From positions 532 to 64,531 of the forward strand of contig JAPDKC010000020.1 in assembly GCA_029258755.1 (NCBI GenBank): a stretch of DNA of 64,000 nucleotides, given 5' to 3'. The translations under genes were made by a program, and so were the position numbers. The notes beneath the pieces were generated by a model. It searched no databases, was not told where the DNA came from, and was given only the letters and a program-made list of their open reading frames with translations. Of this stretch, positions 6,051-40,802 are shown one piece after another (positions within the stretch are counted from its first letter, which is position 1; each line of letters opens with the position of its first letter). Source of the DNA: an archaeon (GTDB lineage: Archaea > Iainarchaeota > Iainarchaeia > Iainarchaeales > DTGL01).

Positions 6051-8459
6051 ATGCTTTCTAGAAAACTTCTGTTAGCTTTTTTCCTTCTTCTAACGCTTAC
6101 TAGGTGCTTTGCAGTAATTGAGGAAGCGTCCATCCCTATATTCGCTGTTACAGAGTCGGAAGATAGAGCAGTAAGAGCGGAACTTACTATTAAGATAGTT
6201 CCTGGAAGCGGAAAAATTTGGAGCTCTGTAGGTCCTTTAGTAGGAACCTCAACCCAACATACGGAAAAGATTGCTGTGGAGCTTGCGAAAAATTACTCTG
6301 ACGAGGTAGAGAAGTACGATTATATGTTCGATATAAATTCTACTGCCAGCGTTGTTGAGGGCCCAAGCGCGGGAGCAGCGATGGCATTGCTTTTAATCAC
6401 AATGCTTCAGGACAAAAAGCTGCCTGGGTATGTTGCGATAACAGGGCAAATAAGTGAAGATGGCTCAATAGGTTCTGTTGGAGGAATATTCCTAAAAGCA
6501 GAAAAAGCTGCTCAAACAGGAATAAAGCTCTTTATGATTCCCAAAGGAGATGCTTATCAAACACATCGTTTTCCAGATGGTATAAAGACAGTTAACCTCG
6601 TTGAATACGCTCCTAAAGAATGGGGGATGAAGGTTGTAGAGGTATCAAACATAGATGAAGCATTGGCTTATGCTTTTACTCCTTTGGAGAAGATAGATAT
6701 AAATACTCAAGTTAAGGAGCAAAAACCTTTCGCTCCAGAAGTAATACCGCTTAAAGACAAACTTAAACCAATGAAATCACTTACTTCAAAATACATTGAA
6801 AAAGCAGAGGAAACAATTGATGCCGCAAAAGATGCCCTAAACAACAGCAAGCTTTTGGATCAGCAGGTAATATCCGTACTGCTTCAATCTCTTACAAATT
6901 CCCAAAAAAATATAGAAAAAGCCAAACTTCTGTATGAGGCCAATTATTTGTATTCAGCAGCAAACTATGCTTTTGTTTCCCTAGTTAATGCACGTCTTGT
7001 TAAGGATTTGGCAGAGAACCCTTCGTTGCTAAAATCAGATTCGGTATTGCTAAAAAGCTTAGTATCGCAGCTTGGTGAGAAGATTGAAGAACTTTCTAAA
7101 CAGCTCGATAAGTTCTACACTATTGAGCGATTTGAATGGCTTGTTGCTGCAAAGGAAAGGATCTCTTGGGCAGAACTCAACTTAAACAAAATAAAAAATA
7201 TAAAAACAGTAATAATCACCAACACCGGCATAACTGAGGGCATATCTGTGCCTCTGAAGAATTTGCAGGACTATGAATTCGCTTTGGGGTGGTATGAAAT
7301 AGCAAGCGATTTTTATAACATAGCGAAAGAAGCTAATGACAAATTCCAGGCGGAGCCATTCCTTGAAGAAGAGGCAAGAATGTATATAATAAAAGCAGAA
7401 AATTGTGTAGCGACATTATACGAGGAAGATGAGGACATAAGCAGACGCTTAGAAGCTGCAAGATTCGAATTTAAAAAGGAATGGTATGACGCAGCTCTTT
7501 TCGATGCAGCTAGCGCGTATGGGCTGTGCTCCTCTCATGAGGAAACTAAAGGCAAATCTCTATCGGAGCTTATCTCTACACTGGAAGAAAAAATAACCGC
7601 AGTCAAAAACAAATTGCTACATGATAAGGGTGCTGTCTGGCCAGAGCTTTACATAACCCATGCAGAATATTTCCTAAAATCAGCAAAGCATTACAAAGAA
7701 GAAAAAGCTTTTTCTAAAGCGATAGAAGATGCTAAAGCAGGTATAAGTTTGGCCCTATTTGCAAAAGAACTCTTAGATGCCTCTTTGGATGCGAGAAACA
7801 AACTTGTAAAAATCTCACGCAAACCATTTGCTGAAGAGCTACCTGAAATAACTCCAGAGTTGCCATCACCAGGCGAACAAGAAAGCCCGATTAATAAGTT
7901 TGCCATGAATGTGGGCATTGTAATTTCGATCCTGATACTTCTGTGCTTTTTAGTAGCAATACTTATTCTATTTATCAAAAGGCAGGATTACGAAAAAGCA
8001 GCAGGCGAGAAAGAAGTGTTAAAAGGAAAAATAAACACGATAGAAAATATGTTAAAAGAACTCGATAAAAGATTCATGCGCAATAAAATAACAAAGCAAG
8101 AGTACCTTTCAAGGAAAAATGTTTATGAGAAGCAGCTTCGCGCCTTAAAGGAAGAACTCTCAAGAAAATCAAAACATCTGCTTGAGATAGATAGAATTAG
8201 GGCACAGCTGAAGGAAGTCCAATTTATGTTGGATCAAATAAAAGCCCAGTATGAAGCAGGCGAACTTCTCGAGGAGGATTACCGAAAAGCATTTTCAAAA
8301 TATCTCAGCAAACTAGAGAAACTCAAAGAGGAGCTTGCAGTTGAGGAGCAAGAACTAGCGCAAGAAAAGAAAAAGATAGAAAAACTTGCAAACTTTCCGA
8401 AGAGAGGGAAACAAAAGGTACTTAGCAAAGCCTACAAAAGTAGAAGTAAAAGGCGTTAA
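6051..8459 (+). CDS. Secreted, membrane-anchored protein with an N-terminal Lon-type S16 peptidase domain, a long helical region, a single TM helix and a C-terminal coiled-coil basic tail; it has no AAA+ module
   Basis: Signal-peptide-like 'MLSRKLLLAFFLLLTLTRCFA'. Lon proteolytic-domain motifs 'VVEGPSAGAAMALLLITML' (catalytic Ser context) and 'ITGQISEDGSIGSVGGIFLKAEKAAQTGIKLFMIPKGD' (catalytic Lys context). TM helix 'MNVGIVISILILLCFLVAILILFI' is encoded at about 7907-7978. No Walker motifs are present. Confidence 0.6.
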   Translation: MLSRKLLLAFFLLLTLTRCFAVIEEASIPIFAVTESEDRAVRAELTIKIVPGSGKIWSSVGPLVGTSTQHTEKIAVELAKNYSDEVEKYDYMFDINSTASVVEGPSAGAAMALLLITMLQDKKLPGYVAITGQISEDGSIGSVGGIFLKAEKAAQTGIKLFMIPKGDAYQTHRFPDGIKTVNLVEYAPKEWGMKVVEVSNIDEALAYAFTPLEKIDINTQVKEQKPFAPEVIPLKDKLKPMKSLTSKYIEKAEETIDAAKDALNNSKLLDQQVISVLLQSLTNSQKNIEKAKLLYEANYLYSAANYAFVSLVNARLVKDLAENPSLLKSDSVLLKSLVSQLGEKIEELSKQLDKFYTIERFEWLVAAKERISWAELNLNKIKNIKTVIITNTGITEGISVPLKNLQDYEFALGWYEIASDFYNIAKEANDKFQAEPFLEEEARMYIIKAENCVATLYEEDEDISRRLEAARFEFKKEWYDAALFDAASAYGLCSSHEETKGKSLSELISTLEEKITAVKNKLLHDKGAVWPELYITHAEYFLKSAKHYKEEKAFSKAIEDAKAGISLALFAKELLDASLDARNKLVKISRKPFAEELPEITPELPSPGEQESPINKFAMNVGIVISILILLCFLVAILILFIKRQDYEKAAGEKEVLKGKINTIENMLKELDKRFMRNKITKQEYLSRKNVYEKQLRALKEELSRKSKHLLEIDRIRAQLKEVQFMLDQIKAQYEAGELLEEDYRKAFSKYLSKLEKLKEELAVEEQELAQEKKKIEKLANFPKRGKQKVLSKAYKSRSKRR

Positions 8460-11419
8460 GCACCTTCTAAAATCTTCTGTTCCAAATCTAGCCCTATAAC
8501 GCTTGATTTATCCTTGCTCATAGTCACGCCGATTATTTGGTCAGCTTTCTTTATAACAGCCTGGTTGTGGGTTATAACAATAATCTGGGCTTTTTTCGAG
8601 AATTCTTTCAAAGCGCTAGCTACTTTTTCAGAATTTATCTCATCCAGAGCTGCATCGGCTTCATCCAAAACATAGAGAGGTGCTGGCTTGTAGAGGAGTA
8701 TTGCGAAAATAAATGTAAGTGCTGTAAGAGTTTTTTCGCCACCGCTCATGCTATCTATAGATTGAAGCGCTTTGCCTTTATGTTTCGCCTCTATTATAAG
8801 GCCTGCGGAGGTGGGCTCATTATAATCGGTAAGCTTTAGTTCTGCATAACCTCCAAAAAATTTGTAAAACATGTTTGAAAAATTCTTTCTAATAGCGTTA
8901 AAGCATTCCATAAAAACCTCATTTCTTTTTATCTCTATCTTCCTTATCATATCAAGCACAGCTTCTCTTTCTTCCTCGAGTTTTTGTATCTTTTCCTTCA
9001 CCTCGAGCAGGGAAGCTTCTTCTTCCTTTATTGCCTCCGCTGCTTTTAGATTCACAGGCCCTATCGCTGCAAGCTCCTTTTCAACTTTTGCAAGCTCTTT
9101 CTTCAATTCCTTCGCGGTTAGTTCTGTTAGCAATTGTGTTTTTGGAAGATTTTTCAATTCCTCCTCCAAATCGGTAAGCCTTACCTCACTCTTCCCTATT
9201 TCCAAGCGAGCATTGTTTATCTCTTTTTCAATGAGCTTTTTCTCATTTTCCAAAGATTCCAGTTCGCTGCTCAATTTTTCAGCATGGATAAGCATGTTCT
9301 CCTTCTTATTGATAAGTCCTTTTATCGATTCTGCCCTTTCATTCCTCTTTATCTCAAGCTTTGCCAATCTTTCTTTAAACTTTTGTAGTGCCTTATTCCT
9401 TTCCTCGATGAATGTTTCGTTTTCCCTCTTTTCTTCAGCCAGCTTTTGTATCTTCGTCCTTATTTTTTTAATCTCTTCATCTAAAGATTTGATACGCTGC
9501 TCAGATGATGTGAGATTGTGCTCTAAAAGCTCTTTTTTGTGCTTTAGTTCCGCAAGCCTTTCTCTTAACAGTGTTGCCTCATCGCTTTTAAGTTTTCCTA
9601 ATTCTTCGAGCAAAAGTGCTTTTCTTTCCTTTATTTTGATCCTCTCGTTTTCGAGTTTATTTAGCTCTGCTTTGATAGATTCCAAATCAATTAGAGAGTG
9701 TTTTTCCTTCTCTAAAAGAATTGAAAGTTCCTTAAGTTCTTTTGTCAGTTCCTTGTAAGCTGAGCATTCCCTGCTAAGCTCATTTAGCTTTTCCAAATCA
9801 GCTTCAGCAGAAGCTATCTTCTCAGAAAGTTCTCGCAAAGCTTTCTTGGTTTCATTAAGCTTTTGCTCTAAGAACACTAAACCCTTCTTTTTCTTCTCCA
9901 GCAATGACTTTCTTTTAGCTTCGTCCAAAGTACTTTCGCATAGAGGGCATTTGGTTTTAACCTTCTCAAGACTGCTTAACGCTTCTTTTGTTTGCTCAAT
10001 CTTTGTTAGTATTTCCCTTTCATTCCCTATTAGCTCTTTTTCTCGGGCTTTTAAGGAACGCAATAATGAATCCAAATTTTTTCCCTCTAAAACCTGCATT
10101 TGCTCCTTTAGTTTGCTTAGCTTATCTCTCTGTTTTGTTAGTTCCTCTATTCTTCTTTCAAGCTCCGCTATTCTTTCTTTCCTCATTTCATTTTCTTTTT
10201 CCGCACTACTCAGCAATTTTTGTTTTTTAACCAATTCTCTGTTTATTTCCTCGATTTGTTCCTCAAGAGCCTTAAGCTTGTTTTCAATTCCTAACGCTTT
10301 TTCCTCAGAATCTTTTGCTGCTTCCTCTACTTCAATAAGCTTGCTTTCCACCTCTTCGAGCTCTTTTCCTATAGATGCAATCTTTTGCTTGTATTCCTCT
10401 ATCTTTTTTTCCTCAACCTTTTTTTGTTCGAGCGCGTTTTTAAGTTCTTCTGCCAACTCTTCCTCCTGCTGATCCAATCTCTCAATAAGCTCTTTTCTTG
10501 CGATTATCTGTTGTTCTGTAACCTTAAGCTTGCTGTTTAACTCCTCTATTTGCTTTCCATACTCTTCGAATAGCTTACTTTGCTCTTCCATTATTTTATT
10601 CGCTAAAGCATCGATCTTTTCCTTGAGCTCCTTAATCCTTTTCTTTATTTTATTCGCTAAGCCCTCTTTTTTCTCAAGAAGCTCTAAACTTTTTTTCAGC
10701 TTTTGCTTGTTTCGCTCAATCTCAGCATTTATAGAATCTATTTCTTTCTTAAGCATTGTTGCTTTAATCGCATCCCTGCGCTTAACAAGCTTTTGGTATC
10801 GCTCTGCCTGTTCGCGTTCCCTTTGAAGCTCCTCCAAGCGCTTTAATCTTTCTCCCAGAACCAGATTTACATCCTTTATCTTTTCATTCACCTTGTCCAA
10901 ATTTTTTTGCGCTTCTTCGCGTTTCAATTCAAATTCTTTTATGCCTGCAAGCTCATCTATTATTGTTCTCCTCTGCTCAGGGCTCATTTCGATTATTCTT
11001 GTAACATCGCCTTGAGCTATAAAATTATGGGCATTCCTTAAGCCGAGCTCTTTAACAAGCGAGACAAGCTCGCTAAGAGATTTTTGCTCATCGTTAATTC
11101 TACAAATGCTCTTTCCTTTCATATCTATAGTTCTGCTCAATGTAATTGTTTCCTTCCCTCTTTTTATTTTAAGTTCCACTTTTCCGTATTTTTCTCTAGC
11201 GTTGCTGTTAATCAAATCCGTTATTCGCGATGCGCGCAAGCTTCTCATAGATGTTTCGCCGAGAACAAAAAGCAGAGAATCGAGTATATTGCTTTTTCCT
11301 GAGCCGTTGGGTCCCACTATTACAGTAAACCCTTTCCTAAATGGTATATTTGCTTTTTTAAATGATTTAAAGTTCTTAAGCTTCAGCTCCTTAAGCTCTA
11401 CCATAGGAATCGCTGTCAT
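8456..11419 (-). CDS. smc: SMC-like chromosome-organisation ATPase with a central CxxC (zinc-hook-like) motif in place of a hinge domain
   Basis: N-terminal 'FRKGFTVIVGPNGSGKSNILDSLLFVLG' (SMC-type Walker A). C-terminal 'MSGGEKTLTALTFIFAILLYKPAPLYVLDEADAALDE' plus 'QIIVITHNQAVIKKADQIIGVTM' (SMC-type signature, Walker B and D-loop). The roughly 650 aa between them is predicted to be continuous coiled coil with no globular hinge. Mid-protein 'KVKTKCPLCESTLDE' is encoded at about 9935-9949. Confidence 0.75.
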   Translation of the reverse strand: MTAIPMVELKELKLKNFKSFKKANIPFRKGFTVIVGPNGSGKSNILDSLLFVLGETSMRSLRASRITDLINSNAREKYGKVELKIKRGKETITLSRTIDMKGKSICRINDEQKSLSELVSLVKELGLRNAHNFIAQGDVTRIIEMSPEQRRTIIDELAGIKEFELKREEAQKNLDKVNEKIKDVNLVLGERLKRLEELQREREQAERYQKLVKRRDAIKATMLKKEIDSINAEIERNKQKLKKSLELLEKKEGLANKIKKRIKELKEKIDALANKIMEEQSKLFEEYGKQIEELNSKLKVTEQQIIARKELIERLDQQEEELAEELKNALEQKKVEEKKIEEYKQKIASIGKELEEVESKLIEVEEAAKDSEEKALGIENKLKALEEQIEEINRELVKKQKLLSSAEKENEMRKERIAELERRIEELTKQRDKLSKLKEQMQVLEGKNLDSLLRSLKAREKELIGNEREILTKIEQTKEALSSLEKVKTKCPLCESTLDEAKRKSLLEKKKKGLVFLEQKLNETKKALRELSEKIASAEADLEKLNELSRECSAYKELTKELKELSILLEKEKHSLIDLESIKAELNKLENERIKIKERKALLLEELGKLKSDEATLLRERLAELKHKKELLEHNLTSSEQRIKSLDEEIKKIRTKIQKLAEEKRENETFIEERNKALQKFKERLAKLEIKRNERAESIKGLINKKENMLIHAEKLSSELESLENEKKLIEKEINNARLEIGKSEVRLTDLEEELKNLPKTQLLTELTAKELKKELAKVEKELAAIGPVNLKAAEAIKEEEASLLEVKEKIQKLEEEREAVLDMIRKIEIKRNEVFMECFNAIRKNFSNMFYKFFGGYAELKLTDYNEPTSAGLIIEAKHKGKALQSIDSMSGGEKTLTALTFIFAILLYKPAPLYVLDEADAALDEINSEKVASALKEFSKKAQIIVITHNQAVIKKADQIIGVTMSKDKSSVIGLDLEQKILEGA

Positions 11420-12210
11420 CTGGCTTTAGAGAAAGTAAGATAGTAATCAGTTATCGTTCCTAGGGAAAATGCAAAAATGAAGGTATTAAAAGCAGCATAT
11501 AGCAAGAGCACAGCAAGTGTATTTTCAAACATACTTAATACAAAGTATTGAAGAGCAACTATTACTAGTGTTATAAGCGCTAATACCAAACCTAGCGCTA
11601 TGGACTGCCAGAAAAATTTTCCTGTAAAATGCCAGCTGGCTTGTAGGGCTTTTCTTACATTGGCCTTTTGAGCAATCGCCGGCAAAGAAAACATAAACAG
11701 GCGCATAGCGGCTATAGAGATAAAGAGGGCAAAAAATATCAAAGCAAGGAAACCAAAGAAGAAATTAAAACCAAAGAGGTTGATAAGCGCTAAACTAATA
11801 ATCCCAGCTGCAGCAAAGAAAACGCCAAGAACGATTAAAAGCCCCAAAGAGCTTCCTATAGAGCTCAAAACAAAGCCAAGGGCTTTGCTTAGGTTCTTTC
11901 GTTTTCTTTCTAAAATAACACACTTTGAGTAATAGATCCCGATAAGAATGCTAAACCATAAATTAATTAATGAGGCAGAGAACATAACCAGAAGATTCTG
12001 GAATTTCGCCTTTATAAGAAACAATAATGTTGCAATAAAATCTGCTTCGATAATATTGGAGTAAAGAATTTTGTCGGCTATAGCCTCAACAAATGCTTGC
12101 AAGAAGAAAAAGAATAAGAACGCGCTTATAATTGCTCCTACAAACGGCACTATCAGAATGTATGGTTTTTTTGCTATAAGTTTTAGGGAATTGAGTATAG
12201 AGGCCAGCAT
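11416..12210 (-). CDS. Polytopic membrane protein, uncharacterised; its stop overlaps the downstream smc-like start by 4 nt
   Basis: Six to seven hydrophobic helices. Translationally coupled to the SMC-like gene (ATGA-type overlap at 11416-11419). Confidence 0.5.
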   Translation of the reverse strand: MLASILNSLKLIAKKPYILIVPFVGAIISAFLFFFFLQAFVEAIADKILYSNIIEADFIATLLFLIKAKFQNLLVMFSASLINLWFSILIGIYYSKCVILERKRKNLSKALGFVLSSIGSSLGLLIVLGVFFAAAGIISLALINLFGFNFFFGFLALIFFALFISIAAMRLFMFSLPAIAQKANVRKALQASWHFTGKFFWQSIALGLVLALITLVIVALQYFVLSMFENTLAVLLLYAAFNTFIFAFSLGTITDYYLTFSKAR

Positions 12211-12275
12211 GCAACCACTTTTTAATATAGGTAACGAGCTTTTTTATTCTTTTTCATTCCTTTTTTGCTTATCTG

Positions 12276-13241
12276 TTATTCCAAGATCTCCACATGGTCT
12301 ATCAAGCCATCGCTGTCCAAATCTAGGCCTTCGACAACATGAGCGCAGCTACGCTTGTTAAACCTATTCGGCTTTATTATCTCCTCTGTGTTTTGAATTA
12401 AAGCCAAAACAGCCGCTTTTGTTCCAGCATTCCTTTTTCCCGCTATAAACAATATAGCCTTATCCTCGAAGTAAGGGTGCTTTATCTTCTCTATTATCCC
12501 AACAGCGTCTTCCGTGTATTCTTTCTCGGAGTTCTCGCTTATTATGAGCCAGTGAGCGTTCTTCTGCTCAAACCTTATGGAAAGATGTTCGTTCACTTCA
12601 GCGCTTGTTTTATTTGTTATTGGACCTCCGATAACTATAATATTATCATTTACTTTGCTTATATGGGGAAGCATCGTATCTAAAAACACGTAAGGGTAAC
12701 GAATGCTTCTGCAGAGGGTTCCGAGAAAGCCAGCAAGTTCTGTAGCTATGTGAGCATCTCTGGCCCTTGCTTTAAATACGCCGTGCGAATCTGGGGCGCC
12801 AACAACAATCTTCGCGTTGAGCTCGTTGTTTTCTATAAATGGATGGAAGAATTCTTGCAAGGGCTTTGGCATCCCTTTTTCCATGCCCTGAAGCTTTGAT
12901 ATGCTTGCAGAATCAAGTTGAGGAACAAAAGCAAAGCAGCTAACGTTTGCTTTGTAGTATTTCGCTAAGCCGCCTCTTTTTTCCTCGCGCTTTGTAAGCT
13001 TCACTAAGCCAGCGTTTTTGAGTTTATTTATATAATAATAAACCTCTTGTTGCTGCAATCCAAGTTTCTTTGCGATGTCTGCAGGATAGCTTTCCTTTTT
13101 GGAGAGCTCTTTAAATATAAGCCAGCATTTTTCATTTAGCAATGGTTTCAGCTTTTCTGTTGATTCTAGTACTTCAGCATCACACACGAAATACCTATTA
13201 TCTTTTTGAAAGGATAAACGAGCAAGCAATCTTACCACCAT
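12276..13241 (-). CDS. Winged-helix (ArsR/MarR-like) domain protein with an uncharacterised C-terminal domain
   Basis: 'SYPADIAKKLGLQQQEVYYYINKLKNAGLVKLTKRE' is a wHTH recognition helix plus wing. The C-terminal roughly 200 aa has no recognised motifs. Same strand as, and upstream of, the membrane-protein/SMC-like pair. Confidence 0.5.
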   Translation of the reverse strand: MVVRLLARLSFQKDNRYFVCDAEVLESTEKLKPLLNEKCWLIFKELSKKESYPADIAKKLGLQQQEVYYYINKLKNAGLVKLTKREEKRGGLAKYYKANVSCFAFVPQLDSASISKLQGMEKGMPKPLQEFFHPFIENNELNAKIVVGAPDSHGVFKARARDAHIATELAGFLGTLCRSIRYPYVFLDTMLPHISKVNDNIIVIGGPITNKTSAEVNEHLSIRFEQKNAHWLIISENSEKEYTEDAVGIIEKIKHPYFEDKAILFIAGKRNAGTKAAVLALIQNTEEIIKPNRFNKRSCAHVVEGLDLDSDGLIDHVEILE

Positions 13242-16508: not shown

Positions 16509-17131
16509 AAATAACTATTGAGAGTATTCTTGAGGAGGCTAAAAAGCTTATTGATGACCCCGAGCCAAAATTCTGGGAACTTATAAACAAGCTGGAAAAG
16601 GTTGAGATAAAAACAGAACTCCTTGGCGAAATAGAGGATAACGTTGTAATAAAAGGTGATCTTTACTTAGGTAAAAATTCTGTGATAAAATCTGGAACGA
16701 GGATAGAAGGAAATGTATATATAGGTGAAAACTGCACCATAGGACCAAATGCTTATTTTCGTGGCAATGTTATCATTGCCAACAACTGCAAAATCTCGTA
16801 CTCGGAAATAAAAAACTCCATAATACTTTCACATACAAATGTTCCGCATTTCTCTTATGTAGGAGATTCTATATTGGGGGAAGATGTAAATCTCGGTGCA
16901 GGTACGAAGATAGCAAACCTGCGCTTAGATGAAAAAAATATTCAAGTAGAGATTTGCGGAAAAAAGTTTGACAGCAATAGAAGAAAGCTGGGTGCCCTTA
17001 TAAAATCCGGCACAAAAACTGGAATAAACGTTTCCATAAACTGTGGCGTTGTAATTGGAAAAAATTGCTTTATATATCCAGGGGCATTTGTTAAAGAAAG
17101 CATAGCCGATAATACTATTTTTACGCGCTAA
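16505..17131 (+). CDS. Hexapeptide-repeat (left-handed beta-helix) acetyltransferase, resembling the GlmU C-terminal domain
   Basis: Repeated [LIV]G-x4 hexapeptides ('IGENCTIGPNAYFRGNVIIANNCKI'). No N-terminal nucleotidyltransferase domain. Translationally coupled to glmM. Confidence 0.7.
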   Translation: MKITIESILEEAKKLIDDPEPKFWELINKLEKVEIKTELLGEIEDNVVIKGDLYLGKNSVIKSGTRIEGNVYIGENCTIGPNAYFRGNVIIANNCKISYSEIKNSIILSHTNVPHFSYVGDSILGEDVNLGAGTKIANLRLDEKNIQVEICGKKFDSNRRKLGALIKSGTKTGINVSINCGVVIGKNCFIYPGAFVKESIADNTIFTR

Positions 17132-19850
17132 GAAATTCAAGCTCTTTTCCAGTAAAACCATCGATAAAAATGCGCCTTTTCTTCCCGGTTTTTATATTCT
17201 CCACAATTCCTTCATAGACAGGCCAGTAAATCTCTTTTATAGATGTTACCACGAGCTTCTTCCATATCTTTTGTAGAAGTTCACGCACCTCTCTTTTCGA
17301 ATATCTTTCTTTTTCCTTCATGATAGCTTGTGCAGTAACCAAAGGAAGTTTTTGCAGAGAAAGATGCAGGCTGTGCAAAGGTGTTCTTGGCAGGTCAAAC
17401 TTCTTTTTTATACAATAAAGGATAACACCATTTTTCTCCATCTTTTTAACAAGATCGTTTTCAATAAGCTTCTTTAATATTCTTTTTACCTTGTTTTCAT
17501 CCATAAACGCCTTCTTGCTTACCTGGGATGCACTTAGCGGGGTTGTCAAAAAGTTCAGTACCTTTATCTCATTATCGCTTAAACCATAGAGATCCTTAAG
17601 CCCCTTGGATTCTACAAAGCCTTCTTTAAAATGGAGAAATTCTCCAGTGTAAGAATTTACAAAAAGCACACTTTGCCTAAACATATTCTTTTCGTTAAAA
17701 TAGTTGAATTCGACCTTATAAACAGGTATATACTTGAGGTTAGTTTCTATTAATCGCTCGCTTCCGGGAAGCAAACCAAAGAGCTTGCTAACCTTTTTCC
17801 TAATTTTAGATTCAGCCTTTTCTTTTGCATATCTTATTGGAAAGGCTAAAAGCTCAAGTTTTTCTTCTGCCTCCTTTTCAGGGATTTCAACGGGCTTTTC
17901 TTCCTCAACTTTTTTCATTTCCGGTTCTGACACAGCAGCAGGCTTCTTTTCCTCCAGAAAAACCATGCCTTCTTCCTCATTAACTTTGGCTCCCTTGTTT
18001 TCTAATTCTAATAGCACATCCTGAAGCTCAAGGTTTGAGCTATACTTGGTATTTAACGAGTTCAACGTTCTGCTTATTTCCGCAAGCTTTGCCCTTCCGT
18101 CCCTCTTCAATCTTGCCCAGTACATAGAGCTTATAAGCTTTAGCACTTGCTCATCGCTTAGCTCAACTTTTGTTTCGATTGTTTCGGTTTCCCTGCCTTC
18201 GTGCTGGCTCATTCTAGGCCTTACCTTCATTATGAAAGCCCTGCTTGTTTCTTCTCTGCGGTCACCAACCAAAGCAACGCCTGTAGGCAAAGTCCTTATA
18301 AAAGCCCCTGCCTTGAATTTGTGCGGAATTATTGCAGGTGTTCGCTTATAAACAGCCTTTATATCATCGTTGAAAACAAGCTTGTGAACAATTATTATAT
18401 CAAGCTGGCTTAGTACCTTAGTATCTATTGCCGATGGCTGCTGTGTTGCAAAAACCAGAGAGCAGCCAGGCCTGCGACCCTGCTTTACATATTCTATTAA
18501 AGCATCGCTTGCTGCTGTTTTGATATTTCCACTCGGAATGAGCGTATGTGCTTCATCTATAAAAAGCCACGTTGGCGGAATTTGGATCTCGAGAAGCTCT
18601 TCTGCTGAGCTTTCAAACCGCTTAGCAGCTTCTTTCCTTGTAGCTATCTTTCTTGCAGCTAATATGCGTCTGGCCAGAATTCCTATTACAAGTGCAGTAA
18701 CATTATCATCCAAAAAACTTGTGTCTATAATTGTAAGCTGACCTTCTCTGCTAAGTTCGCTAAGCGGTGTGCCTTCTATATCAAAAATGCCCCATGATTT
18801 AGCAGCCTCAAACCTACTTGTTAGAGCTCTTATAGAATCCACTTTATAGCCGCGGTCTCTAGAATTAAGTTCAGCATCATTTTCTAGGCAGAATATGATA
18901 TCATCAAGTGAATAATCCTTAGTGCCTTTAATTCGCTCTTTATCTATGGTAATATATCCTTTCTCAACTTTCTCTAAAGCTTTTTCTAGCAGCAAACCCG
19001 TTGGGCTAAAGCGATCTATTCCAAATGTTAGGCACCAATCCTGAGCTGTAAGCATTGAGGGCTTTATGGAGAATGTTGCATCATAGGTGCCTTTAGGCGT
19101 CTGAGACTCCATCCCCTTTGGAATAAAAACAACTATATTATCAAGCCCTTTTGGCTCAAGCCCCCATTTTTTTAGCTCCTCAACCTCTTTTTCTTCGCGA
19201 TTGGCATATCTCATGCTCCAGAAGACGCCGACAGGATCAACAACAATTATGCCAACATCGGGGTTTTTTAGCGCTAGCTCCTCAGCAATCACGCCAAGCA
19301 CATAACTTTTTCCGCTGCCACGAGCACCGCAAACAAAAACAACATGAGGATTTAAACTATCTAACAAGATATCCTTTTCTTTATAGCCAGGTTCGTGTAC
19401 GCGGCCTATAAAAAGAGCTGCTTGTGATCCATACTTTTCATATACGGATTTTTTTCTGCCAATAAACGCTCGGCCTTCCTCATCTTCAAGGAATTTTAGT
19501 TCAGGAAGTATAATATCGCTTCCCTCCGCAACTACAACCTTCCCTTTATCCTCCTTCTTAGCTTTTTTCTTATCTCCTTCTTTTTTCTCCCCTTTTTTAT
19601 CTTCCTTAATTTCTTCTCCCCTTTCCTCTTCAAGAACGGCTTCCTCTTTTATGTTTTTTTCTTTTTCCGGCTCAGCGTATATGCTTTCGCTTTCTTTACT
19701 TTCCTTTTCTATTTTTTCTTTTTCCTTTTTTGCAATCTCACTCAGCTTTTTCCTAGCTTCTTTCAGCTCCTCATCTAAGCCAAACACTTCCTCAAATAAG
19801 TCCTGCTCTTCACTATCCTTCTCTATAACAACCCTTTTCTTCTCGGCCAT
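17121..19850 (-). CDS. HerA/FtsK-superfamily P-loop ATPase (DUF87-like) with a K/E-rich disordered N-terminus and a C-terminal extension of about 340 aa containing a winged-helix-like segment
   Basis: Walker A 'VFVCGARGSGKSYVLGV' and Walker B 'WLFIDEAHTLIP'. HerA-type 'SLVFATQQPSAIDTKVLSQLDIIIVHKLVFNDD'. The N-terminal 110 aa is KE low-complexity. Confidence 0.65.
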   Translation of the reverse strand: MAEKKRVVIEKDSEEQDLFEEVFGLDEELKEARKKLSEIAKKEKEKIEKESKESESIYAEPEKEKNIKEEAVLEEERGEEIKEDKKGEKKEGDKKKAKKEDKGKVVVAEGSDIILPELKFLEDEEGRAFIGRKKSVYEKYGSQAALFIGRVHEPGYKEKDILLDSLNPHVVFVCGARGSGKSYVLGVIAEELALKNPDVGIIVVDPVGVFWSMRYANREEKEVEELKKWGLEPKGLDNIVVFIPKGMESQTPKGTYDATFSIKPSMLTAQDWCLTFGIDRFSPTGLLLEKALEKVEKGYITIDKERIKGTKDYSLDDIIFCLENDAELNSRDRGYKVDSIRALTSRFEAAKSWGIFDIEGTPLSELSREGQLTIIDTSFLDDNVTALVIGILARRILAARKIATRKEAAKRFESSAEELLEIQIPPTWLFIDEAHTLIPSGNIKTAASDALIEYVKQGRRPGCSLVFATQQPSAIDTKVLSQLDIIIVHKLVFNDDIKAVYKRTPAIIPHKFKAGAFIRTLPTGVALVGDRREETSRAFIMKVRPRMSQHEGRETETIETKVELSDEQVLKLISSMYWARLKRDGRAKLAEISRTLNSLNTKYSSNLELQDVLLELENKGAKVNEEEGMVFLEEKKPAAVSEPEMKKVEEEKPVEIPEKEAEEKLELLAFPIRYAKEKAESKIRKKVSKLFGLLPGSERLIETNLKYIPVYKVEFNYFNEKNMFRQSVLFVNSYTGEFLHFKEGFVESKGLKDLYGLSDNEIKVLNFLTTPLSASQVSKKAFMDENKVKRILKKLIENDLVKKMEKNGVILYCIKKKFDLPRTPLHSLHLSLQKLPLVTAQAIMKEKERYSKREVRELLQKIWKKLVVTSIKEIYWPVYEGIVENIKTGKKRRIFIDGFTGKELEFLSA

Positions 19851-21638: not shown

Positions 21639-22925
21639 ATGCACGCTGGCGAAAAATTTTTTATTGCTTTTATAGGAGTCGCTGCTCTATTGTTTTTTAT
21701 AAGCATTATTCTTCTTTATTTACCGGCAGAAACCGGACAAACAAACAAGAGCATAAGTGGTTCTGCTGAAAAACCTTCGCAAGATATTTCACAAGATATA
21801 CTTAAAGAGATTGAAGAAAAAACTGGCATAAAGATACCTGAAGAGGTTAAAGAAGCTGCTAAAGACGCTTCCGTTTGCGAGAGGATATCTAAAGGACTGG
21901 GCAGGGATATGTGTTATGAGAATTATGCTACACTATATAAAAACCCCGCCCTTTGCGAAAAGATAGAGAATGAAACATATAGAAACCAATGCTATTCGCA
22001 TACAAGTGAGTTTTCTTCAGATCCAGCGCTATGTGAAAAGATAACTTCTGATGTTGAGAGGGATAGGTGCTATAAAAATATTGCACTAAATAAAAAAGAT
22101 GTTTCGCTATGCGACAAGATTTCTGGAAATGTGGAATACATAAAAAAGTGGGACTGCTATAAGGATGTTGCCATAGCGAAAAAGGACCCAACAATTTGCG
22201 ATATGATGGAAGAACAGCGTGAAGTATGCTACTCCGATTTAGCAACCGCTCTTAATGATGCATCTCTTTGCAGCAAGAGTTCAAATCCGGAGTATTGCTA
22301 TTACACTATTGCATTAAACACATTGGACCCAGCTCCTTGCAAGAATAGTGGTGATTGGAAACAGAAATGTTACGAAGAGATTGCATTAACTAAGAAGGAT
22401 TATTCAATTTGTGAAAAATTAGAGCTGCGCAAAGCAGATTGTTTTTATAAAATTGCTTTGGACAAAAAAGATCCTTCGATTTGTGGTAAAGCTTCAGAGG
22501 AAAGCGTTGCAGGTAACTGCTATTACCTCCTTTCCATAGATATGAACAACCCTTCTCTTTGCGATGAGATTCTAGATACAACCTATAAAAATCGTTGTTA
22601 TAGCACGTTTGCTTATGCATTGAATGATACTTCATTTTGTGAGAAGATGGAAACTAGTGAAGGGGAAAAAGATTGTTATATTACACTTGCGAAAAAACTT
22701 AATGACAGCAGCATATGCGGCAAAGCCACAGAGGTTGAGATTAAAGACAAGTGCTATCATGAAATGGCTGTAAAAGCCAAAGATGGTTCTTTATGTGCTT
22801 ATATTCAAAGCACGGAAGAGAAGGATTCCTGCTATTTAGAGGTCGCCCTAAATATAGATGATCCTACCTTATGTGATAACATTCAAGATTCCGGAAAGAG
22901 GGAGTTTTGCCTTAAGTATAGCTGA
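21639..22925 (+). CDS. Membrane-anchored, cysteine-pair tandem-repeat protein (about 14 degenerate repeats of 24-29 aa)
   Basis: N-terminal TM 'FFIAFIGVAALLFFISIILLYL'. From about 21870 onward the unit is C-x2-[IL]-x5-9-C-[YF]-x3-[AL]-x3-4-[DN]-x-[ST]-[LIF], for example 'CEKITSDVERDRCYKNIALNKKDVSL' and 'CEKLELRKADCFYKIALDKKDPSI'. Confidence 0.6.
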   Translation: MHAGEKFFIAFIGVAALLFFISIILLYLPAETGQTNKSISGSAEKPSQDISQDILKEIEEKTGIKIPEEVKEAAKDASVCERISKGLGRDMCYENYATLYKNPALCEKIENETYRNQCYSHTSEFSSDPALCEKITSDVERDRCYKNIALNKKDVSLCDKISGNVEYIKKWDCYKDVAIAKKDPTICDMMEEQREVCYSDLATALNDASLCSKSSNPEYCYYTIALNTLDPAPCKNSGDWKQKCYEEIALTKKDYSICEKLELRKADCFYKIALDKKDPSICGKASEESVAGNCYYLLSIDMNNPSLCDEILDTTYKNRCYSTFAYALNDTSFCEKMETSEGEKDCYITLAKKLNDSSICGKATEVEIKDKCYHEMAVKAKDGSLCAYIQSTEEKDSCYLEVALNIDDPTLCDNIQDSGKREFCLKYS

Positions 22926-30449: not shown

Positions 30450-30484
30450 CTATAATCACCAAGCATACATATAATACTTCTTTT

Positions 30485-31234
30485 CTATTTAAATTTTTCT
30501 TGTTGTAATAACTTGGGTATAATCTCTTCCAACCACTTTGCAAATTCTGTTTTGCTGATCTTTTCTACGCTGCTTAAAGAATCTTCCAAGCCAGGGTCAA
30601 ATTTAATCGCACCCAAATATCTTATGCCTAAATCTTTAGCATTTCTTTTTATAAAATCGGAATCTTTTTGCTTCATGTTTTCGATAATTCCTATAACCGG
30701 AATGCTTTGTTGCTTTAACATCTTTATCATTCTTTCCACACTTTCCCAAGCAAGCTTCGATTGCGTACTTACAAGTAAGAATTCTAATCTTTTTATCGCT
30801 CTTATTATTTCAAGCGTTGCATCTCCAATGCCTGGGGGCATATCAATAATGAGAAAATCAAGCTCTTTCCAAATTGTTATAGCAAGCAATTCTATTATTG
30901 CGTTTGAAACATCAATGCCGCGCAAAGGTGCTGGCTTATCCTCAATAAAGTATATAATCGACATAAATTTTATTCCGTAAATTGTAGGAGGCAAAAGCCC
31001 TTTTTCTTCTTGGGGAAAAGCAGGCTTTATGCCAAGTATCATGTGATCTGAAGGGCTGAAAAAATCCAAATCCAATAAGCCGACTTTGTAGCCCCTCTCC
31101 GCCAACTTTAAAGCAAGCGAGCAAGAGATAACGCTTTTTCCCACGCCCCCTTTGCATGCAGAAACAGCAATAATTCTTTTGACACCTTTTAACCTATCTT
31201 CTATAACACTAAACCTTGCATCTATGCCTAACAT
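30485..31234 (-). CDS. Mrp/MinD-family P-loop ATPase, probably the ATPase-type HypB (Ni-insertion partner of HypA)
   Basis: Deviant Walker A 'AVSACKGGVGKS'. Length 249 aa. Its start abuts the hypA stop at 31234. In Thermococcales an Mrp/MinD ATPase replaces the GTPase HypB. Confidence 0.65.
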   Translation of the reverse strand: MLGIDARFSVIEDRLKGVKRIIAVSACKGGVGKSVISCSLALKLAERGYKVGLLDLDFFSPSDHMILGIKPAFPQEEKGLLPPTIYGIKFMSIIYFIEDKPAPLRGIDVSNAIIELLAITIWKELDFLIIDMPPGIGDATLEIIRAIKRLEFLLVSTQSKLAWESVERMIKMLKQQSIPVIGIIENMKQKDSDFIKRNAKDLGIRYLGAIKFDPGLEDSLSSVEKISKTEFAKWLEEIIPKLLQQEKFK

Positions 31235-31638
31235 TAAATCTCCTCTACAGAAGCTATGGAAAGGCCTCGGCCTTTTTTAATCTCAAAGTCAACGCTTTTA
31301 CAATTTGGACATTGCATATAGCTATGTGCTATATCTGGAATAAAATGTATAAATTCCGCTTGCTTTTCGCTTAGCCTTTTTTTTGTTTCGCTAAGATTCC
31401 ATTCGAAGCCGCAAGTCCGGCATTTTAATTTGGCCTTTTCCTCCTTTATTTCATAGGTTATATGCCAATCTTTAAGCTCTTTTGTTATTTCTTCAAGCGC
31501 ATGTGTGAATATTTCTTTATCTATTTGCTGTAGTTCGCCAAGAAGCACGCTTACCTTTATCCGCTTTTTAAAACCATTCTTGTTTGCAAAATCTGTTGCT
31601 GCTTTTACTACTGCTTGTGCTAAAGACCACTCGTGCAT
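31234..31638 (-). CDS. hypA: Hydrogenase nickel-incorporation protein HypA
   Basis: N-terminal 'MHEWSLAQAVV' and zinc site 'CRTCGFEW...CPNCKS'. Confidence 0.8.
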   Translation of the reverse strand: MHEWSLAQAVVKAATDFANKNGFKKRIKVSVLLGELQQIDKEIFTHALEEITKELKDWHITYEIKEEKAKLKCRTCGFEWNLSETKKRLSEKQAEFIHFIPDIAHSYMQCPNCKSVDFEIKKGRGLSIASVEEI

Positions 31639-31721
31639 ATAAAATCACAAAAATAATAAAACCAAACATTTTTAATTTTGGTCAATAATGTATTATTATT
31701 TCGCTTTTTAGAGGTGAAAAT

Positions 31722-33320
31722 ATGCCAAATAAAAAGACGATTAAAGAATTTTTAAAACCAGATTGGAAAAAGATTGTTCTGAGCTTTTTGCTGCTTTTAG
31801 CTTGTTTTTTGTTTTTCGTTTCAGTAACTGCTTTGCCCATGCCAGTCTCCATGATTCCTGTTATTACAGGCTTGTTCTTGGCACTCCTTTTGCCCTTTGC
31901 CGTGGTTTATAATCTGTTGTCTTTTGGTATTCCGGATATTGTTGCATTAATTATAGCTTTTAGTTTGCATGTTTTCTATTTTTATGTCGTTTCCTGCTTT
32001 TTAGTGTGCTTATTGGCACGCCTAAAGAATTTGATAGTGTCCATAAAATGGAGTAAATGGGATGCAAAAACACTTGGTGTTCTGGCGAGTATAGCAGTGA
32101 TTGGAATCGCTGTTTATGGCTTTCTAAATCTTGGTTGGACCGACATATTTATTCCGACTGCTGATGACAGCGGAGCAACGCCAGAAGGGATTACAGAGGT
32201 GGTTAAGGCAAATAACCAGTTTGCTATCAAGCTTTACTCGGAAATAAGCAAAGATTCTAATGGAAACATATTTTTCTCTCCTTGGAGTGTATCAACTGCA
32301 ATGGCAATGGTGTATGAAGGTGCTCGGGGCCGGACGGCAGATGAAATAAGATCCGTTTTTCAGTTTCCTGAAGATAATGACAGAAGAAGGTTTTCCTTTG
32401 CGAGACTACTGAATACAGTGAACAAGACTAGCGGAAGATACGAATTTCATGTTGCGAATGCAATATGGTTGCAGAAGGAATATCCTTTTTTAGAGGAATA
32501 CAAAAATATAATATGGAGATATTATTTAGGTGAAATCAGGAATGTAGATTTTGTAAATGATGCTGCCAGCTCAAGTAATGAGATAAATAACTGGGTTGCA
32601 GACCATACAAATAACAAAATAAGAGAAATTGTGCGTCCAGAGATGTTCAACGAACTTACCCGTGCTGTGCTTACGAATGCGATATATTTCAAAGGAAAAT
32701 GGAAATACCAGTTTGATAAGCAACACACAAAACCGGAGGATTTTATCCTTGGTTCTGGAGAAAAGGTTAAGGTTCCAATGATGCAGCTTATGGATTCAGA
32801 TTTGGAATTCAATTATGCGGAAATGGATGGTGTGCAGATACTTGAAATAAAATATCAGGGTGACAAAATATCAATGCTGGTTCTCCTGCCAAGAACTAAC
32901 ATACACTACTTAGAATCAATACTGACTGAAGAAAGGCTTCAGAAGTGGCGAAACAGCCTTAAACCCGAAATAGTTTACATATACATGCCCAAATATAAAT
33001 TTGAAACCTCTTACTCATTAACAGACTATTTAAAAGATATGGGAATGCATTCACCTTTTGAATGGCCTGGTGCAGATTTCTCTGGAATTGATGGAACAAA
33101 GACGCTTTACATTAGCGATATCTTGCATAAAGCATACGTAGATGTCTGTGAGGAAGGCACAGAGGCAGCAGCGGCAACTACCATTCTTGTTACGAAAGGA
33201 GCAGCACCCAAGCACCCAGTAGTATTTAGAGCAGACCGTCCGTTTATATTCATAATACAGGAAAGCAAAACGGGAAACATTCTTTTCATTGGCAGGGTAA
33301 TGCAGCCTGTAGGTTATTGA
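31722..33320 (+). CDS. Serpin (serine protease inhibitor) with an N-terminal multi-TM membrane anchor
   Basis: About 140 aa with 3-4 hydrophobic helices, then a serpin core 'NIFFSPWSVSTAMAMVYEGARGRT', hinge/RCL 'EEGTEAAAATTILV' and C-terminal 'FRADRPFIFIIQESKTGNILFIGRV'. Confidence 0.8.
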   Translation: MPNKKTIKEFLKPDWKKIVLSFLLLLACFLFFVSVTALPMPVSMIPVITGLFLALLLPFAVVYNLLSFGIPDIVALIIAFSLHVFYFYVVSCFLVCLLARLKNLIVSIKWSKWDAKTLGVLASIAVIGIAVYGFLNLGWTDIFIPTADDSGATPEGITEVVKANNQFAIKLYSEISKDSNGNIFFSPWSVSTAMAMVYEGARGRTADEIRSVFQFPEDNDRRRFSFARLLNTVNKTSGRYEFHVANAIWLQKEYPFLEEYKNIIWRYYLGEIRNVDFVNDAASSSNEINNWVADHTNNKIREIVRPEMFNELTRAVLTNAIYFKGKWKYQFDKQHTKPEDFILGSGEKVKVPMMQLMDSDLEFNYAEMDGVQILEIKYQGDKISMLVLLPRTNIHYLESILTEERLQKWRNSLKPEIVYIYMPKYKFETSYSLTDYLKDMGMHSPFEWPGADFSGIDGTKTLYISDILHKAYVDVCEEGTEAAAATTILVTKGAAPKHPVVFRADRPFIFIIQESKTGNILFIGRVMQPVGY

Positions 33321-33563
33321 GTAGTGTTGTGCCAGCAACGTTTACAAAAAACTTTTAATAGTTCTTCCCACTACATACATATAATTCTGAGAAGTAAGAA
33401 AATGCTAAAGAGAAACCTTATTAGAAGCAAACCAAGCGATGAAAAAAGCAGCCTGTTGTTAAAGATGGACTTTCCAAAGAAGTAAAATTATTGGGCTTAA
33501 ATGGTTTCGGACAAGCAATGCTTTCTACAAGCTTCAAGCACAAAAATAGGTCTGTGATCAAAA

Positions 33564-34001
33564 TTGAAAATGCTTCTTGGAATTGGTAACGAACTTCTTG
33601 CTGATGATAGCATCGGCTGCTACATAGCTGAGAAGTTTAAGGATGAAAATTGGTTTGTGCAAAACTGTGGCACAGTGCCAGAGAACTACCTTGGGCTAGT
33701 TATCAGAGTAAGACCAGAGCTGCTTGTTATAGTGGACGCAGCACATATGAATCTTAAACCAGGTGAAATAAGAAGGTTAAGGAAGGAGCAAGCATGTTCT
33801 GCTTTTATAAGCACGCACAGCTTGCCCTTAAAGGAATTCATAACCATCGCAAGCAAGTATGCTAAGCAGGTTGTTTTGATAGGAATACAACCAAAAAATA
33901 TTTCTTTTGCTCAGCCTATGAGTGCTGAAGCAAAACAAGCAGCAAGGAAACTTATGAATGTATTGAAGCTTAATAAGTTGGAAGAAATAGAAAGGCTTTA
34001 G
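33564..34001 (+). CDS. [NiFe] hydrogenase maturation endopeptidase (HycI/HybD family)
   Basis: 'MLLGIGNELLADDSIGCYIAEKF' is the canonical N-terminus. Length 145 aa. Confidence 0.8.
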   Translation: MKMLLGIGNELLADDSIGCYIAEKFKDENWFVQNCGTVPENYLGLVIRVRPELLVIVDAAHMNLKPGEIRRLRKEQACSAFISTHSLPLKEFITIASKYAKQVVLIGIQPKNISFAQPMSAEAKQAARKLMNVLKLNKLEEIERL

Positions 34002-34409
34002 CTATTGCTTCTTTTCAGGTATCAAGAAGCCAGCATCTTTATTATAATCTGCTAGCAGAAACTCATCGCTTTGTTCAAGTGCCTTTACAGGGCATATATC
34101 GACACATTGACCGCAAAAAGTGCATCTGCTTACATAATGCTTAATTCGATTGTTTTTTTCATCAAACTCTAACGCTTTAGCTGGACATACGCGAATGCAT
34201 TGCTTGCACCTTATGCATTTATCCTCGTGATAAATTAAGCGTCCTCTAAACCTTGGCGGTGTTTTTATGGGCTTATTTATTTTTGCTTTTCCTTTTTCCA
34301 CTTCTTCCATTAAATGTGTAAAACTTTTTGGCACATGTTTACATGGAAAAGGATTTGTGGAAGGTTTTTTGAAAAGCTGCTTTACTAATTGTTTCACAAA
34401 GGATAACAT
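34002..34409 (-). CDS. mbhN: Membrane-bound hydrogenase subunit N (2x[4Fe-4S] ferredoxin, NuoI-like)
   Basis: Two 'CxxCxxCxxxCP' motifs ('CIRCKQCIRVCP', 'CTFCGQCVDICP'). Last gene of the colinear cluster. Confidence 0.8.
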   Translation of the reverse strand: MLSFVKQLVKQLFKKPSTNPFPCKHVPKSFTHLMEEVEKGKAKINKPIKTPPRFRGRLIYHEDKCIRCKQCIRVCPAKALEFDEKNNRIKHYVSRCTFCGQCVDICPVKALEQSDEFLLADYNKDAGFLIPEKKQ

Positions 34410-34410
34410 G

Positions 34411-40564: not shown

Positions 40565-40802
40565 CTTCCAACCTCCTAGTCTTCTTAATCGCTAGCACAA
40601 AAATGGCTGTAGTTAAGCAGCCGCCAACAGCAGCTTCGGTTATGGCAACATCCGGTGCCTGAAGCAAGAAGAATTCTAGTGAAAGTAGAAAGCTCATTGC
40701 TGCCAACATAACTACGCTGACTAAAAGGTCTTTGGCTTCTATCGCTAGCAAAGCGCTTGCAAGTATTGCAATTAACGTTATGATGTGTAGCACTATTCTC
40801 AC
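40551..40802 (-). CDS. mbhD: Mbh Mrp-module subunit D
   Basis: Synteny; 83 aa with two to three TM helices. Confidence 0.5.
   Translation of the reverse strand: MRIVLHIITLIAILASALLAIEAKDLLVSVVMLAAMSFLLSLEFFLLQAPDVAITEAAVGGCLTTAIFVLAIKKTRRLEDESS

Follow-up and report, generated by a model that had tools for sequence, protein, structure and literature searches.

The hinge is widely seen as a defining and functionally important part of SMC proteins, with roles in dimerisation, DNA binding and possibly DNA entry. Its replacement in the laboratory has been described for B. subtilis Smc, in which the hinge was exchanged for the zinc hook of Pyrococcus furiosus (Pfu) Rad50; the resulting Smc(Zh) supported normal growth, and the arm-length periodicity was kept (Buermann et al. 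2017, PMC5344682). Similarly, Rad50 equipped with the hinge of MukB or B. subtilis Smc was functional in fission yeast (PMC6969161), and the growth obtained with Smc(Zh) together with the function of hinge-bearing Rad50 makes a working SMC with a Rad50 hook plausible. Among natural proteins, the archaeal ASRPs (ClsN/coalescin, Sph1/Sph2; NF045487) are SMC-superfamily ATPases with a zinc-hook motif in the place of the hinge (PMC9389158), and hinge-less SMC variants are known from marine Actinobacteria (Sussfeld et al. 2025, PMC12153180). In the full-text literature searched, a natural zinc-hook SMC was not described, and only engineered chimeras, ASRPs and the hook-less actinobacterial variants came up. 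Here, we analyse a candidate for such a protein, the 987-residue product of a gene in a 64-kb stretch of an archaeal contig (JAPDKC010000020.1; the whole stretch is referred to as the window). An original prediction, made from the letters of the window, had read it as an SMC-type ATPase that dimerises through a Rad50-like hook and is coupled to a membrane-protein gene. Our analysis supports, with a probability of about three in four, that the protein, referred to as hook-SMC in the following, is the SMC of a DPANN clade (Iainarchaeota, formerly 'Diapherotrites') in which a zinc hook of archaeal Rad50 origin has taken the place of the hinge.

The ATPase head was of SMC type, as had been predicted from its motifs, which were all present. 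Pfam SMC_N matched the protein at 2.5e-51, and the NCBIfam SMC models scored 546.4 bits (SMC_prok_A, TIGR02169) and 480.1 bits (TIGR02168), in both cases below the equivalog cut-offs of 729.4 and 567.35 bits, respectively. Rad50 models, in contrast, reached at most 152 bits (best NF003034, cut-off 700), with all Rad50 cut-offs being at least 700. With the ASRP model NF045487 (593 positions, compared to the 987 residues of hook-SMC), the match was restricted to the C-terminal head and reached 144.9 bits, the cut-off being 300. In sequence comparisons with the PDB, prokaryotic Smc heads were the best matches (5xei, 2e-89; 4i99, 1e-69), while Rad50 heads followed at 8e-19. Family alignments revealed invariant residues in all nucleotide-binding motifs, namely G36, N38, G41, K42 and N44 of the Walker A motif, Q136 of the Q-loop, the signature S892-G-G-E895, Y916, D919, E920, D922, A923, L925 and D926 of the Walker B/D-loop region, and H951 of the H-loop.

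The arms likewise follow canonical SMC (TIGR02169/TIGR02168), with which hook-SMC shares the head motifs, a conserved neck and arms of about 320 residues with SMC-like interruptions. The NCBIfam SMC models aligned residues 9-514 with profile positions 2-524 and residues 484-969 with positions 681-1170. The profile segment absent from the protein (~525-680) is exactly the hinge, and by these coordinates each arm is within ~10 residues of the SMC consensus length. In keeping with this, Pfam SMC_hinge (PF06470) gave no match in the protein at E <= 0.1. An AlphaFold2 monomer model built on 39 homologues (mean predicted local distance difference test score, pLDDT, 79) displayed an SMC head and long helices with paired breaks, spanning residues 160-367, 369-445 and 449-484 in the N-terminal arm and 500-554, 556-574, 579-610, 614-757, 769-786 and 793-855 in the C-terminal arm, joined by a non-helical apex of only 15 residues. 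The modelled head superposed on the Pfu Smc head 4i99_A with a Foldseek TM-score of 0.87 and a root-mean-square deviation of 2.6 Å. Both the canonical arm length and the missing hinge of the original prediction were thus recovered, by the profile coordinates aligning on either side of the gap and, for the hinge, also by Pfam and the size of the modelled apex.

Conservation along the arms also mirrored the region-by-region pattern of canonical SMC. In the hook clade, the neck helices had conservation values of 0.49 and 0.42, compared to 0.22-0.24 for the rest of the arms, while the corresponding values for canonical SMC were 0.47 and 0.32 for the necks and 0.22-0.23 for the remainder. Since the neck is about twice as conserved as the remaining arm, as in canonical SMC, the kleisin-binding neck is under unrelaxed constraint, which is consistent with a retained neck-binding partner.

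Where canonical SMC has the PF06470 hinge, hook-SMC instead carries the putative zinc-binding motif C491-P-L-C494. Rad50_zn_hook (PF04423) matched residues 472-509 of the single sequence at 25.2 bits, above the Pfam cut-off of 24.3. The cysteines were invariant in 39 of 39 aligned long homologues, down to 30% identity, and P492 was kept in at least 90% of them. Among the best 120 database clusters, a central CxxC was present in 44 of 44 long hinge-less proteins (CLVC in one and CP.C in the others, almost always at about residue 481-491) but in 0 of 56 hinge-bearing SMCs; 16 hinge-less proteins of 905-949 aa were devoid of it. A profile made from 84 apex residues of 33 family members matched the Pfu Rad50 zinc hook (1l8d) without gaps over 83 positions at E = 8.1e-14, the next unrelated matches following at E ~0.009. 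The Rad50-like hook proposed for the apex therefore withstood examination both in the protein itself and in its homologues.

The extent of this similarity was assessed with 2250 coiled-coil windows of canonical SMC arms as controls, each with CPVC grafted at its centre and scored on the apex profile. The Pfu Rad50 hook scored 54.9 bits, compared to 13.1 ± 7.0 bits (mean ± standard deviation) and a maximum of 43.9 for the controls. When CPVC was masked to AAAA, the Rad50 hook retained 25.7 bits, while the controls fell to 5.4 ± 3.6 bits with a maximum of 21.2, and none of the 2250 controls attained the Rad50 score with the cysteines either masked or unmasked. Since the masked Rad50 flanks outscored all controls, the similarity reaches into the flanking coiled coil, which argues for the apex having been acquired from Rad50 rather than for a bare CxxC having evolved by convergence. 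Hook-SMC is accordingly alike to Rad50/SbcC in its CP.C hook and the homologous flanking coiled coil (PF04423; 1l8d, 8e-14) and differs from it in the SMC-type head, the SMC-type arms of ~320 residues, and the lack of an Mre11 partner gene in the window or in the flanks of related loci. By analogy with Rad50, the hook would bind zinc and mediate dimerisation.

In a neighbour-joining tree of 75 taxa (447 head and neck columns, 200 bootstrap replicates, bacterial root), the hinge-less proteins nested inside the archaeal SMCs, with 73.5% bootstrap support for the main clade and 80.5% for the clade that adds P0084/P0089 and a group of ~1083-aa proteins. The genomic surroundings point in the same direction. 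Downstream of hook-SMC, a convergent Lon_C gene is followed by the order (L12)-L10-L1-L11-Spt5-SecE-FtsZ in the window and in loci whose SMCs are only 36-52% identical, with a few genes between hook-SMC and the Lon_C gene in the AR10 locus. The Lon_C gene adjoins hook-SMC in most loci, and it adjoins a canonical hinge-bearing SMC in L004, a locus of a related metagenome-assembled genome (MAG) whose SMC (P0082, 1126 aa) shares its downstream neighbourhood with hook-SMC. A Micrarchaeota SMC (L006) is encoded near the same ribosomal protein/FtsZ cluster, without the Lon_C gene. The Lon_C gene is an ancestral SMC neighbour in this part of DPANN. Moreover, no hinge-bearing SMC among the best 120 matches shares a contig with a hook-SMC. 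The nested phylogeny and the downstream genes, which are common with hinge-bearing DPANN SMCs, indicate that hook-SMC is the SMC native to this lineage, with its dimerisation module swapped, and not an orphan family. The original prediction that the protein fits no described family is therefore right in that it fails the criteria of canonical SMC, Rad50 and ASRP/ClsN/Sph, but the protein can be placed, as a derived clade inside the archaeal SMCs.

Hook-SMC further differs from canonical SMC in an obligate upstream membrane-protein gene. A polytopic gene encoding 250-290 aa was located on the same strand directly upstream of the hinge-less SMC in nine assembly loci (among them L005, L002, L089, L090, L091, L092, L093 and L009). 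In an independent set of JGI metagenome loci, it was present in 42 of 42 hinge-less SMC loci with enough upstream sequence, including those of two hook-less short forms, with a median intergenic gap of 9.5 nt (range 4-118), while it was found in 0 of 7 canonical metagenome SMC loci. Nor was any match above noise found among ~80 generic SMC loci obtained by a Walker-motif contig scan, in which 79 of 80 SMCs served as negative controls and the only family member was L009 (Ca. Iainarchaeum sp.). The 264-aa protein of the window aligned over its full length with seven positional orthologues (hhalign probability 99.6%, E = 1.4e-23). PF10110 (GPDPase_memb) matched 23 of 44 positional orthologues (best 8.2e-12) and gave no match at E <= 0.1 for the 264-aa protein itself, and a word-based homologue search with that protein returned only the query, hydrophobic words saturating the candidate list. 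As the membrane gene and the SMC gene stay paired even where the flanks are rearranged (L091, L092), they behave as an operon-level functional unit, and hook-SMC is probably membrane-associated.

The gene upstream of the pair behaves differently. Its 321-aa product contains a winged helix-turn-helix (wHTH) at residues 42-97 (Pfam HTH_5/TrmB/HTH_20) and an S_layer_C match at 3.4e-12. The gene is present in the window, L005, L089, L090 and L117 and absent from L002, L091, L092, L093 and the other metagenome loci, and is thus probably a mere neighbour outside the core module. Of the three-gene operon put forward originally, conservation consequently extends to the membrane gene, found in every hinge-less locus with upstream sequence, and not to the wHTH gene, which is confined to close relatives. 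The wHTH-S_layer_C protein was also considered as a core subunit or cryptic kleisin, and was rejected because of its absence from most loci.

The three minus-strand open reading frames (ORFs) described for the locus were all found, and their coordinates are collected in Table 1 together with the parts of hook-SMC. The window has a GC content of ~39%. The TGA of the membrane gene overlaps the first ATG of hook-SMC (11419) as ATGA, in agreement with the 4-nt overlap described originally. An alternative ATG at 11404 (M6), 15 nt downstream, would replace this overlap by an 11-nt spacer, and fits the MxELKxL N-terminus of most homologues better. The exact 987-aa sequence was not in the protein collection searched, while one Logan gene call uses the 987-aa start. 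Whichever start codon holds, the membrane gene and hook-SMC are tightly coupled. On the opposite side, the 3' ends of the convergent Lon_C and hook-SMC genes overlap by 4 nt, and such an overlap with SMC occurs in both hook-type and canonical DPANN loci. In the Lon_C protein itself, a signal or transmembrane segment at the N-terminus is combined with a Lon_C protease domain that has no ATPase. Also present are a long helical region, another transmembrane segment at about residues 623-641 and a basic coiled-coil tail, which gave a weak CdvA-like match.

Table 1. Positions in the window of the hook-SMC gene, its adjacent genes and the parts of the encoded protein, with the basis of each assignment.
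Feature	Position	Strand	Basis
Hook-SMC gene	8456..11419	(-)	987-aa ORF; 982 aa if M6 (11404) is the true start
Polytopic membrane protein, 264 aa, GPDPase_memb-like, conserved operon partner of hook-SMC	11416..12210	(-)	ORF
wHTH + S_layer_C-like protein, 321 aa	12276..13241	(-)	Pfam
Membrane Lon_C-domain protein, 802 aa	6051..8459	(+)	Lon_C 7.1e-12
N-terminal half of SMC ATPase head, aa 1-165	10925..11419	(-)	Invariant columns; Foldseek to 4i99_A
Walker A	11288-11314	(-)	N-terminal head half, invariant columns
Q-loop Q136	11012-11014	(-)	Invariant column
N-terminal coiled-coil arm including conserved neck helix, aa 166-484, ~320 aa	9968..10924	(-)	AlphaFold2; SMC_prok_A alignment
Rad50-hook-like segment, aa 451-534, apex and ~40 residues of coiled coil per side	9818..10069	(-)	Family profile to 1l8d
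Non-helical apex carrying CxxC, aa 485-499	9923-9967	(-)	AlphaFold2 hairpin
C491-P-L-C494, putative Zn-binding CxxC	9938..9949	(-)	Invariant cysteines; Rad50_zn_hook
C-terminal coiled-coil arm and head-proximal helices, aa 500-855	8855..9922	(-)	AlphaFold2; SMC_prok_B positions 681 onward
C-terminal half of ATPase head, aa 856-987	8459..8854	(-)	Invariant columns; PDB Smc head matches
Signature SGGEK	8732-8746	(-)	Invariant S892-G-G-E895
Walker B/D-loop	8642-8677	(-)	Invariant columns
H-loop H951	8567-8569	(-)	Invariant column

The partners expected of an SMC or a Rad50 were sought with several methods. With Pfam, the four genes of the locus were scanned together with 10 packs of concatenated ORFs (~8,800 aa, roughly half of the coding capacity of the window), the remaining ORFs being inspected by eye, and no ScpA, ScpB, Rad50, Mre11 or NurA domain was detected in the scanned half. 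The 64-kb window also held no second SMC/Rad50-like ORF and no ORF with a metallophosphoesterase motif. Among the annotated ORFs that flank the hook-SMC genes of the assembly loci, none resembled Metallophos, Mre11 or NurA, and no second SMC adjoined any hook-SMC. A search seeded with Archaeoglobus ScpA gave only Archaeoglobales-like proteins. The ScpA hidden Markov model (HMM) derived from it, built on 120 archaeal ScpAs, was still sensitive enough to recognise a ScpA gene immediately after the SMC gene in an Aenigmatarchaeota locus (9e-33) and in 3 of 7 canonical metagenome loci. The earlier statement that no Mre11, NurA, ScpA or ScpB is recognisable nearby accordingly stands for the window, on the evidence of the HMM, the Pfam scans of about half of it and the motif search.

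The architecture, the homology of head and hook, the clade membership, the common downstream genes and the gene linkage are shown by the analysis, and the mechanism proposed from here on is inferred. In this mechanism, each protomer would fold back into an antiparallel coiled coil of ~320 residues, and two protomers would be joined constitutively at the apex, where four cysteines (C491 and C494 of each chain) would coordinate one Zn2+ as in Rad50. The intact SMC heads at the opposite end would engage and disengage with ATP, and the homodimer, with its tuned arms, would entrap and translocate on chromosomal DNA for its folding and segregation, like Smc in Smc-ScpAB and as the engineered Smc(Zh) does, possibly with loop extrusion. 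A partner at neck and cap, a kleisin, probably exists. The gene would be co-transcribed with that of a membrane protein of six to seven helices specific to the hinge-less clade, and as this partner is found only with that clade, the cell membrane probably tethers the complex or is the site of its regulation, presumably through physical contact with the membrane protein.

Several observations weigh against this interpretation. The bootstrap support is moderate, and the tree is a neighbour-joining tree on 447 columns. The AlphaFold2 monomer model is uninformative on zinc and dimerisation, with an apex pLDDT of ~66-69. With the ScpA HMM, none of the window's ORFs of 80 aa or more was recognised as ScpA, nor was any gene in the 4-10 kb around ~50 hook-SMC loci, and no ScpB was found in the window or within the same distance of these loci. 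Finally, both cysteines are gone from several sublineages (905-949 aa) that nest in the clade and still retain the membrane partner; the hook is thus dispensable in some clade members, or dimerisation rests on another basis. The absence of a nearby ScpA is weak evidence, however, because canonical DPANN SMC loci (L004, L006, L012, L014, L016 and L024) are likewise without an adjacent ScpA.

Alternative explanations have to be considered against this background. The idea that the CxxC is a chance motif, or the absent hinge an assembly or annotation artefact, could draw on the single-sequence hook score being only 0.9 bits over the Pfam cut-off, but more than 60 independent clusters from many assemblies have the same architecture, the cysteines are invariant, and the family profile reaches the Rad50 hook at 8e-14, above the 2250 matched controls, which leaves this explanation practically negligible. 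It is also highly improbable that the protein is a functional Rad50, i.e. a double-strand-break repair ATPase with a head that has drifted towards SMC and with Mre11 encoded elsewhere. The real Rad50-type zinc hook at the apex and a HerA-like ATPase 6 kb away would agree with such a role. On the other hand, the head scores 546 bits with the SMC model compared to at most 152 with the Rad50 models (cut-offs at least 700) and matches PDB Smc heads at 2e-89 compared to 8e-19 for Rad50, the ~320-residue arms follow the SMC profile on both sides of the absent hinge, and the protein lies inside the SMC clade. No Mre11- or NurA-like ORF is present in the window or flanks, and the HerA-like gene, with GlmS, GlmM and GlmU between it and the SMC gene, encodes an atypical DUF87-TrmB fusion of 909 aa. 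Similarly, PADLOC hits to mad3 (184 bits) and LmuB (101 bits), the hinge-less nature of LmuB-type proteins and the match of the nearby HerA-like protein to mad8 (2e-21) could suggest the SMC-like component of a mobile defence against phages or plasmids (Lamassu LmuB, Wadjet JetC or MADS mad3), with the membrane protein as effector. The scores for mad3, LmuB and JetC (184, 101 and 42 bits), however, reflect shared head similarity far below the 546 bits of the SMC model; no LmuA/LmuC or JetA/B/D partners were found, and the membrane protein was without a PADLOC match. In addition, the housekeeping synteny (FtsZ, ribosomal proteins, GlmS/M/U) is stable across proteins only 35-40% identical, and neither relatives in the viral contigs searched, nor patchy strain-level presence and absence, nor a defence-island location was seen, so that a defence role seems a very remote prospect. 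A viral origin of the gene was itself rejected, as no relatives occurred in viral contigs.

A closer competitor, though still distinctly unlikely, is a specialised SMC paralogue with a membrane-linked task, such as nucleoid anchoring or compartmentalisation, working beside a canonical Smc-ScpAB encoded elsewhere in the genome, in the way that ClsN/ASRP, MksB and RecN coexist with or substitute for SMC. No kleisin is encoded near any hook-SMC locus, the obligate membrane partner is absent from canonical SMC loci, and some MAGs labelled 'Diapherotrites' have a hinge-bearing SMC (P0082), all of which would fit a paralogue. The downstream neighbourhood, however, is the same as that of the canonical SMC in L004, hook-SMC nests within and not beside the archaeal SMCs, none of the best 120 matches places a hook-SMC and a hinge-bearing SMC on a common contig, and the 64-kb window holds no second SMC-like ORF; the missing kleisin is uninformative, as ScpA is not adjacent in six canonical DPANN loci either. 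An SMC native to the lineage, with an exchanged apex, therefore remains the preferred reading. A more far-reaching version of it, which we regard as rather doubtful, is that the membrane protein and hook-SMC constitute a self-contained, kleisin-less and membrane-anchored chromosome organiser that has replaced Smc-ScpAB across a DPANN phylum, and that the hybrid ATPase may also cover Rad50-like DNA tethering in a reduced genome.

The diversity of the family was assessed by an exhaustive profile search of 1.84 billion representatives, in which 42 clusters (50% identity) ranked above the first canonical SMC; the central CP.C was present in 31 of the 42, including short-armed forms of ~770-810 aa. 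Where the sources name them, the hook-SMC homologues belong to Candidatus Diapherotrites, archaeon GW2011_AR10 and Ca. Iainarchaeum, and they are publicly annotated as 'chromosome segregation protein SMC' or 'AAA family ATPase'. The cysteine-less forms (P0036, P0039, P0041-P0048, P0051, P0053-P0055, P0260, P0262 and P0265) have a short deletion at the apex and no hinge, and keep the upstream membrane gene wherever a locus was in hand (L093, L122 and L128). Like hook-SMC, the marine actinobacterial variants are natural hinge losses within the SMC clade, but they are bacterial and explicitly without a CxxC hook, and are thus closer to these secondarily hook-less sublineages than to the window protein (PMC12153180). 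The ~1083-aa proteins (P0090, P0100, P0113, P0118 and P0119) form a sister group with a central non-coiled segment of ~100 aa and the pattern FGFLED..VVLEDD..FVILSVLG..FYFDGF, without a Pfam hinge match or CxxC; this segment resembles a degenerate mini-hinge and may represent an intermediate in hinge loss. In the mini-SMC hook forms P0263 (807 aa), P0264 (810 aa) and P0268 (772 aa), each arm is ~90-110 residues shorter and the CP.C is located at about residue 376-395. The P-loop is a classic site of intein insertion, and several hook-SMC genes carry a LAGLIDADG intein of ~545 aa in the Walker A P-loop (GxNASGK|C...HN|SN), namely P0024 (archaeon GW2011_AR10; locus L002, 10001-14617), P0043, P0050, P0052 and P0248.

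Other parts of the window also hold features of interest. The HerA-like ATPase (17121-19850 on the minus strand; 909 aa) consists of DUF87 and HerA_C domains fused to a C-terminal TrmB-type wHTH and matches the PADLOC mad8 and HerA models. Its synteny with the SMC locus extends to L005, L089 and L090; no NurA, Mre11 or Rad50 gene lies beside it. At 21639-22925 on the plus strand, a 428-aa protein with an N-terminal transmembrane segment contains many tandem Cys-containing repeats of ~30 aa (..C..I....RD.CY..IA.....P.LC..) and has no Pfam match. The region at ~30480-42000, as read by eye, encodes HypA, a serpin-like 532-aa protein (31722-33320), a hydrogenase maturation protease, a ferredoxin and subunits of an Mbh/Mrp-type membrane hydrogenase/antiporter, which, if this reading is true, would give a DPANN genome an energy-conversion module of considerable size. 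Finally, a run of very basic (lysine/arginine-rich) ORFs at ~46600-53900 has almost no Pfam matches, the exceptions being a DUF6932 nucleotidyltransferase-like protein and two tandem phosphoribosyltransferase-like paralogues (51562-52816), and could represent either an integrated element or an island specific to the lineage.

Compared to the described systems, hook-SMC has the same design as the engineered Smc(Zh), and its apex aligns without gaps to the very Pfu hook used in that chimera (PMC5344682). It differs from the engineered protein in being natural, ancient and diversified (~42 clusters at 50% identity), archaeal and linked to a membrane protein, and in being known from sequence. What is new is thus a natural SMC/Rad50-hook chimera with a clade-specific membrane partner, a chimera formerly made only in the laboratory. 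The finding indicates that the same exchange of hinge for hook took place in nature. Its product has been kept across a whole archaeal clade, with proteins down to 30-35% identical, and provides independent natural evidence that the dimerisation module is interchangeable and that the core mechanism resides in arms and heads. The finding also documents an exchange of modules between the two oldest branches of the SMC superfamily. The cysteine-less sublineages raise the question of how SMC dimers hold together, and the mini-armed hook forms bear on the tuning of arm length. Lastly, the membrane partner, inherited strictly together with the SMC, suggests a so far unstudied link of an SMC to the cell membrane in ultra-small archaea.

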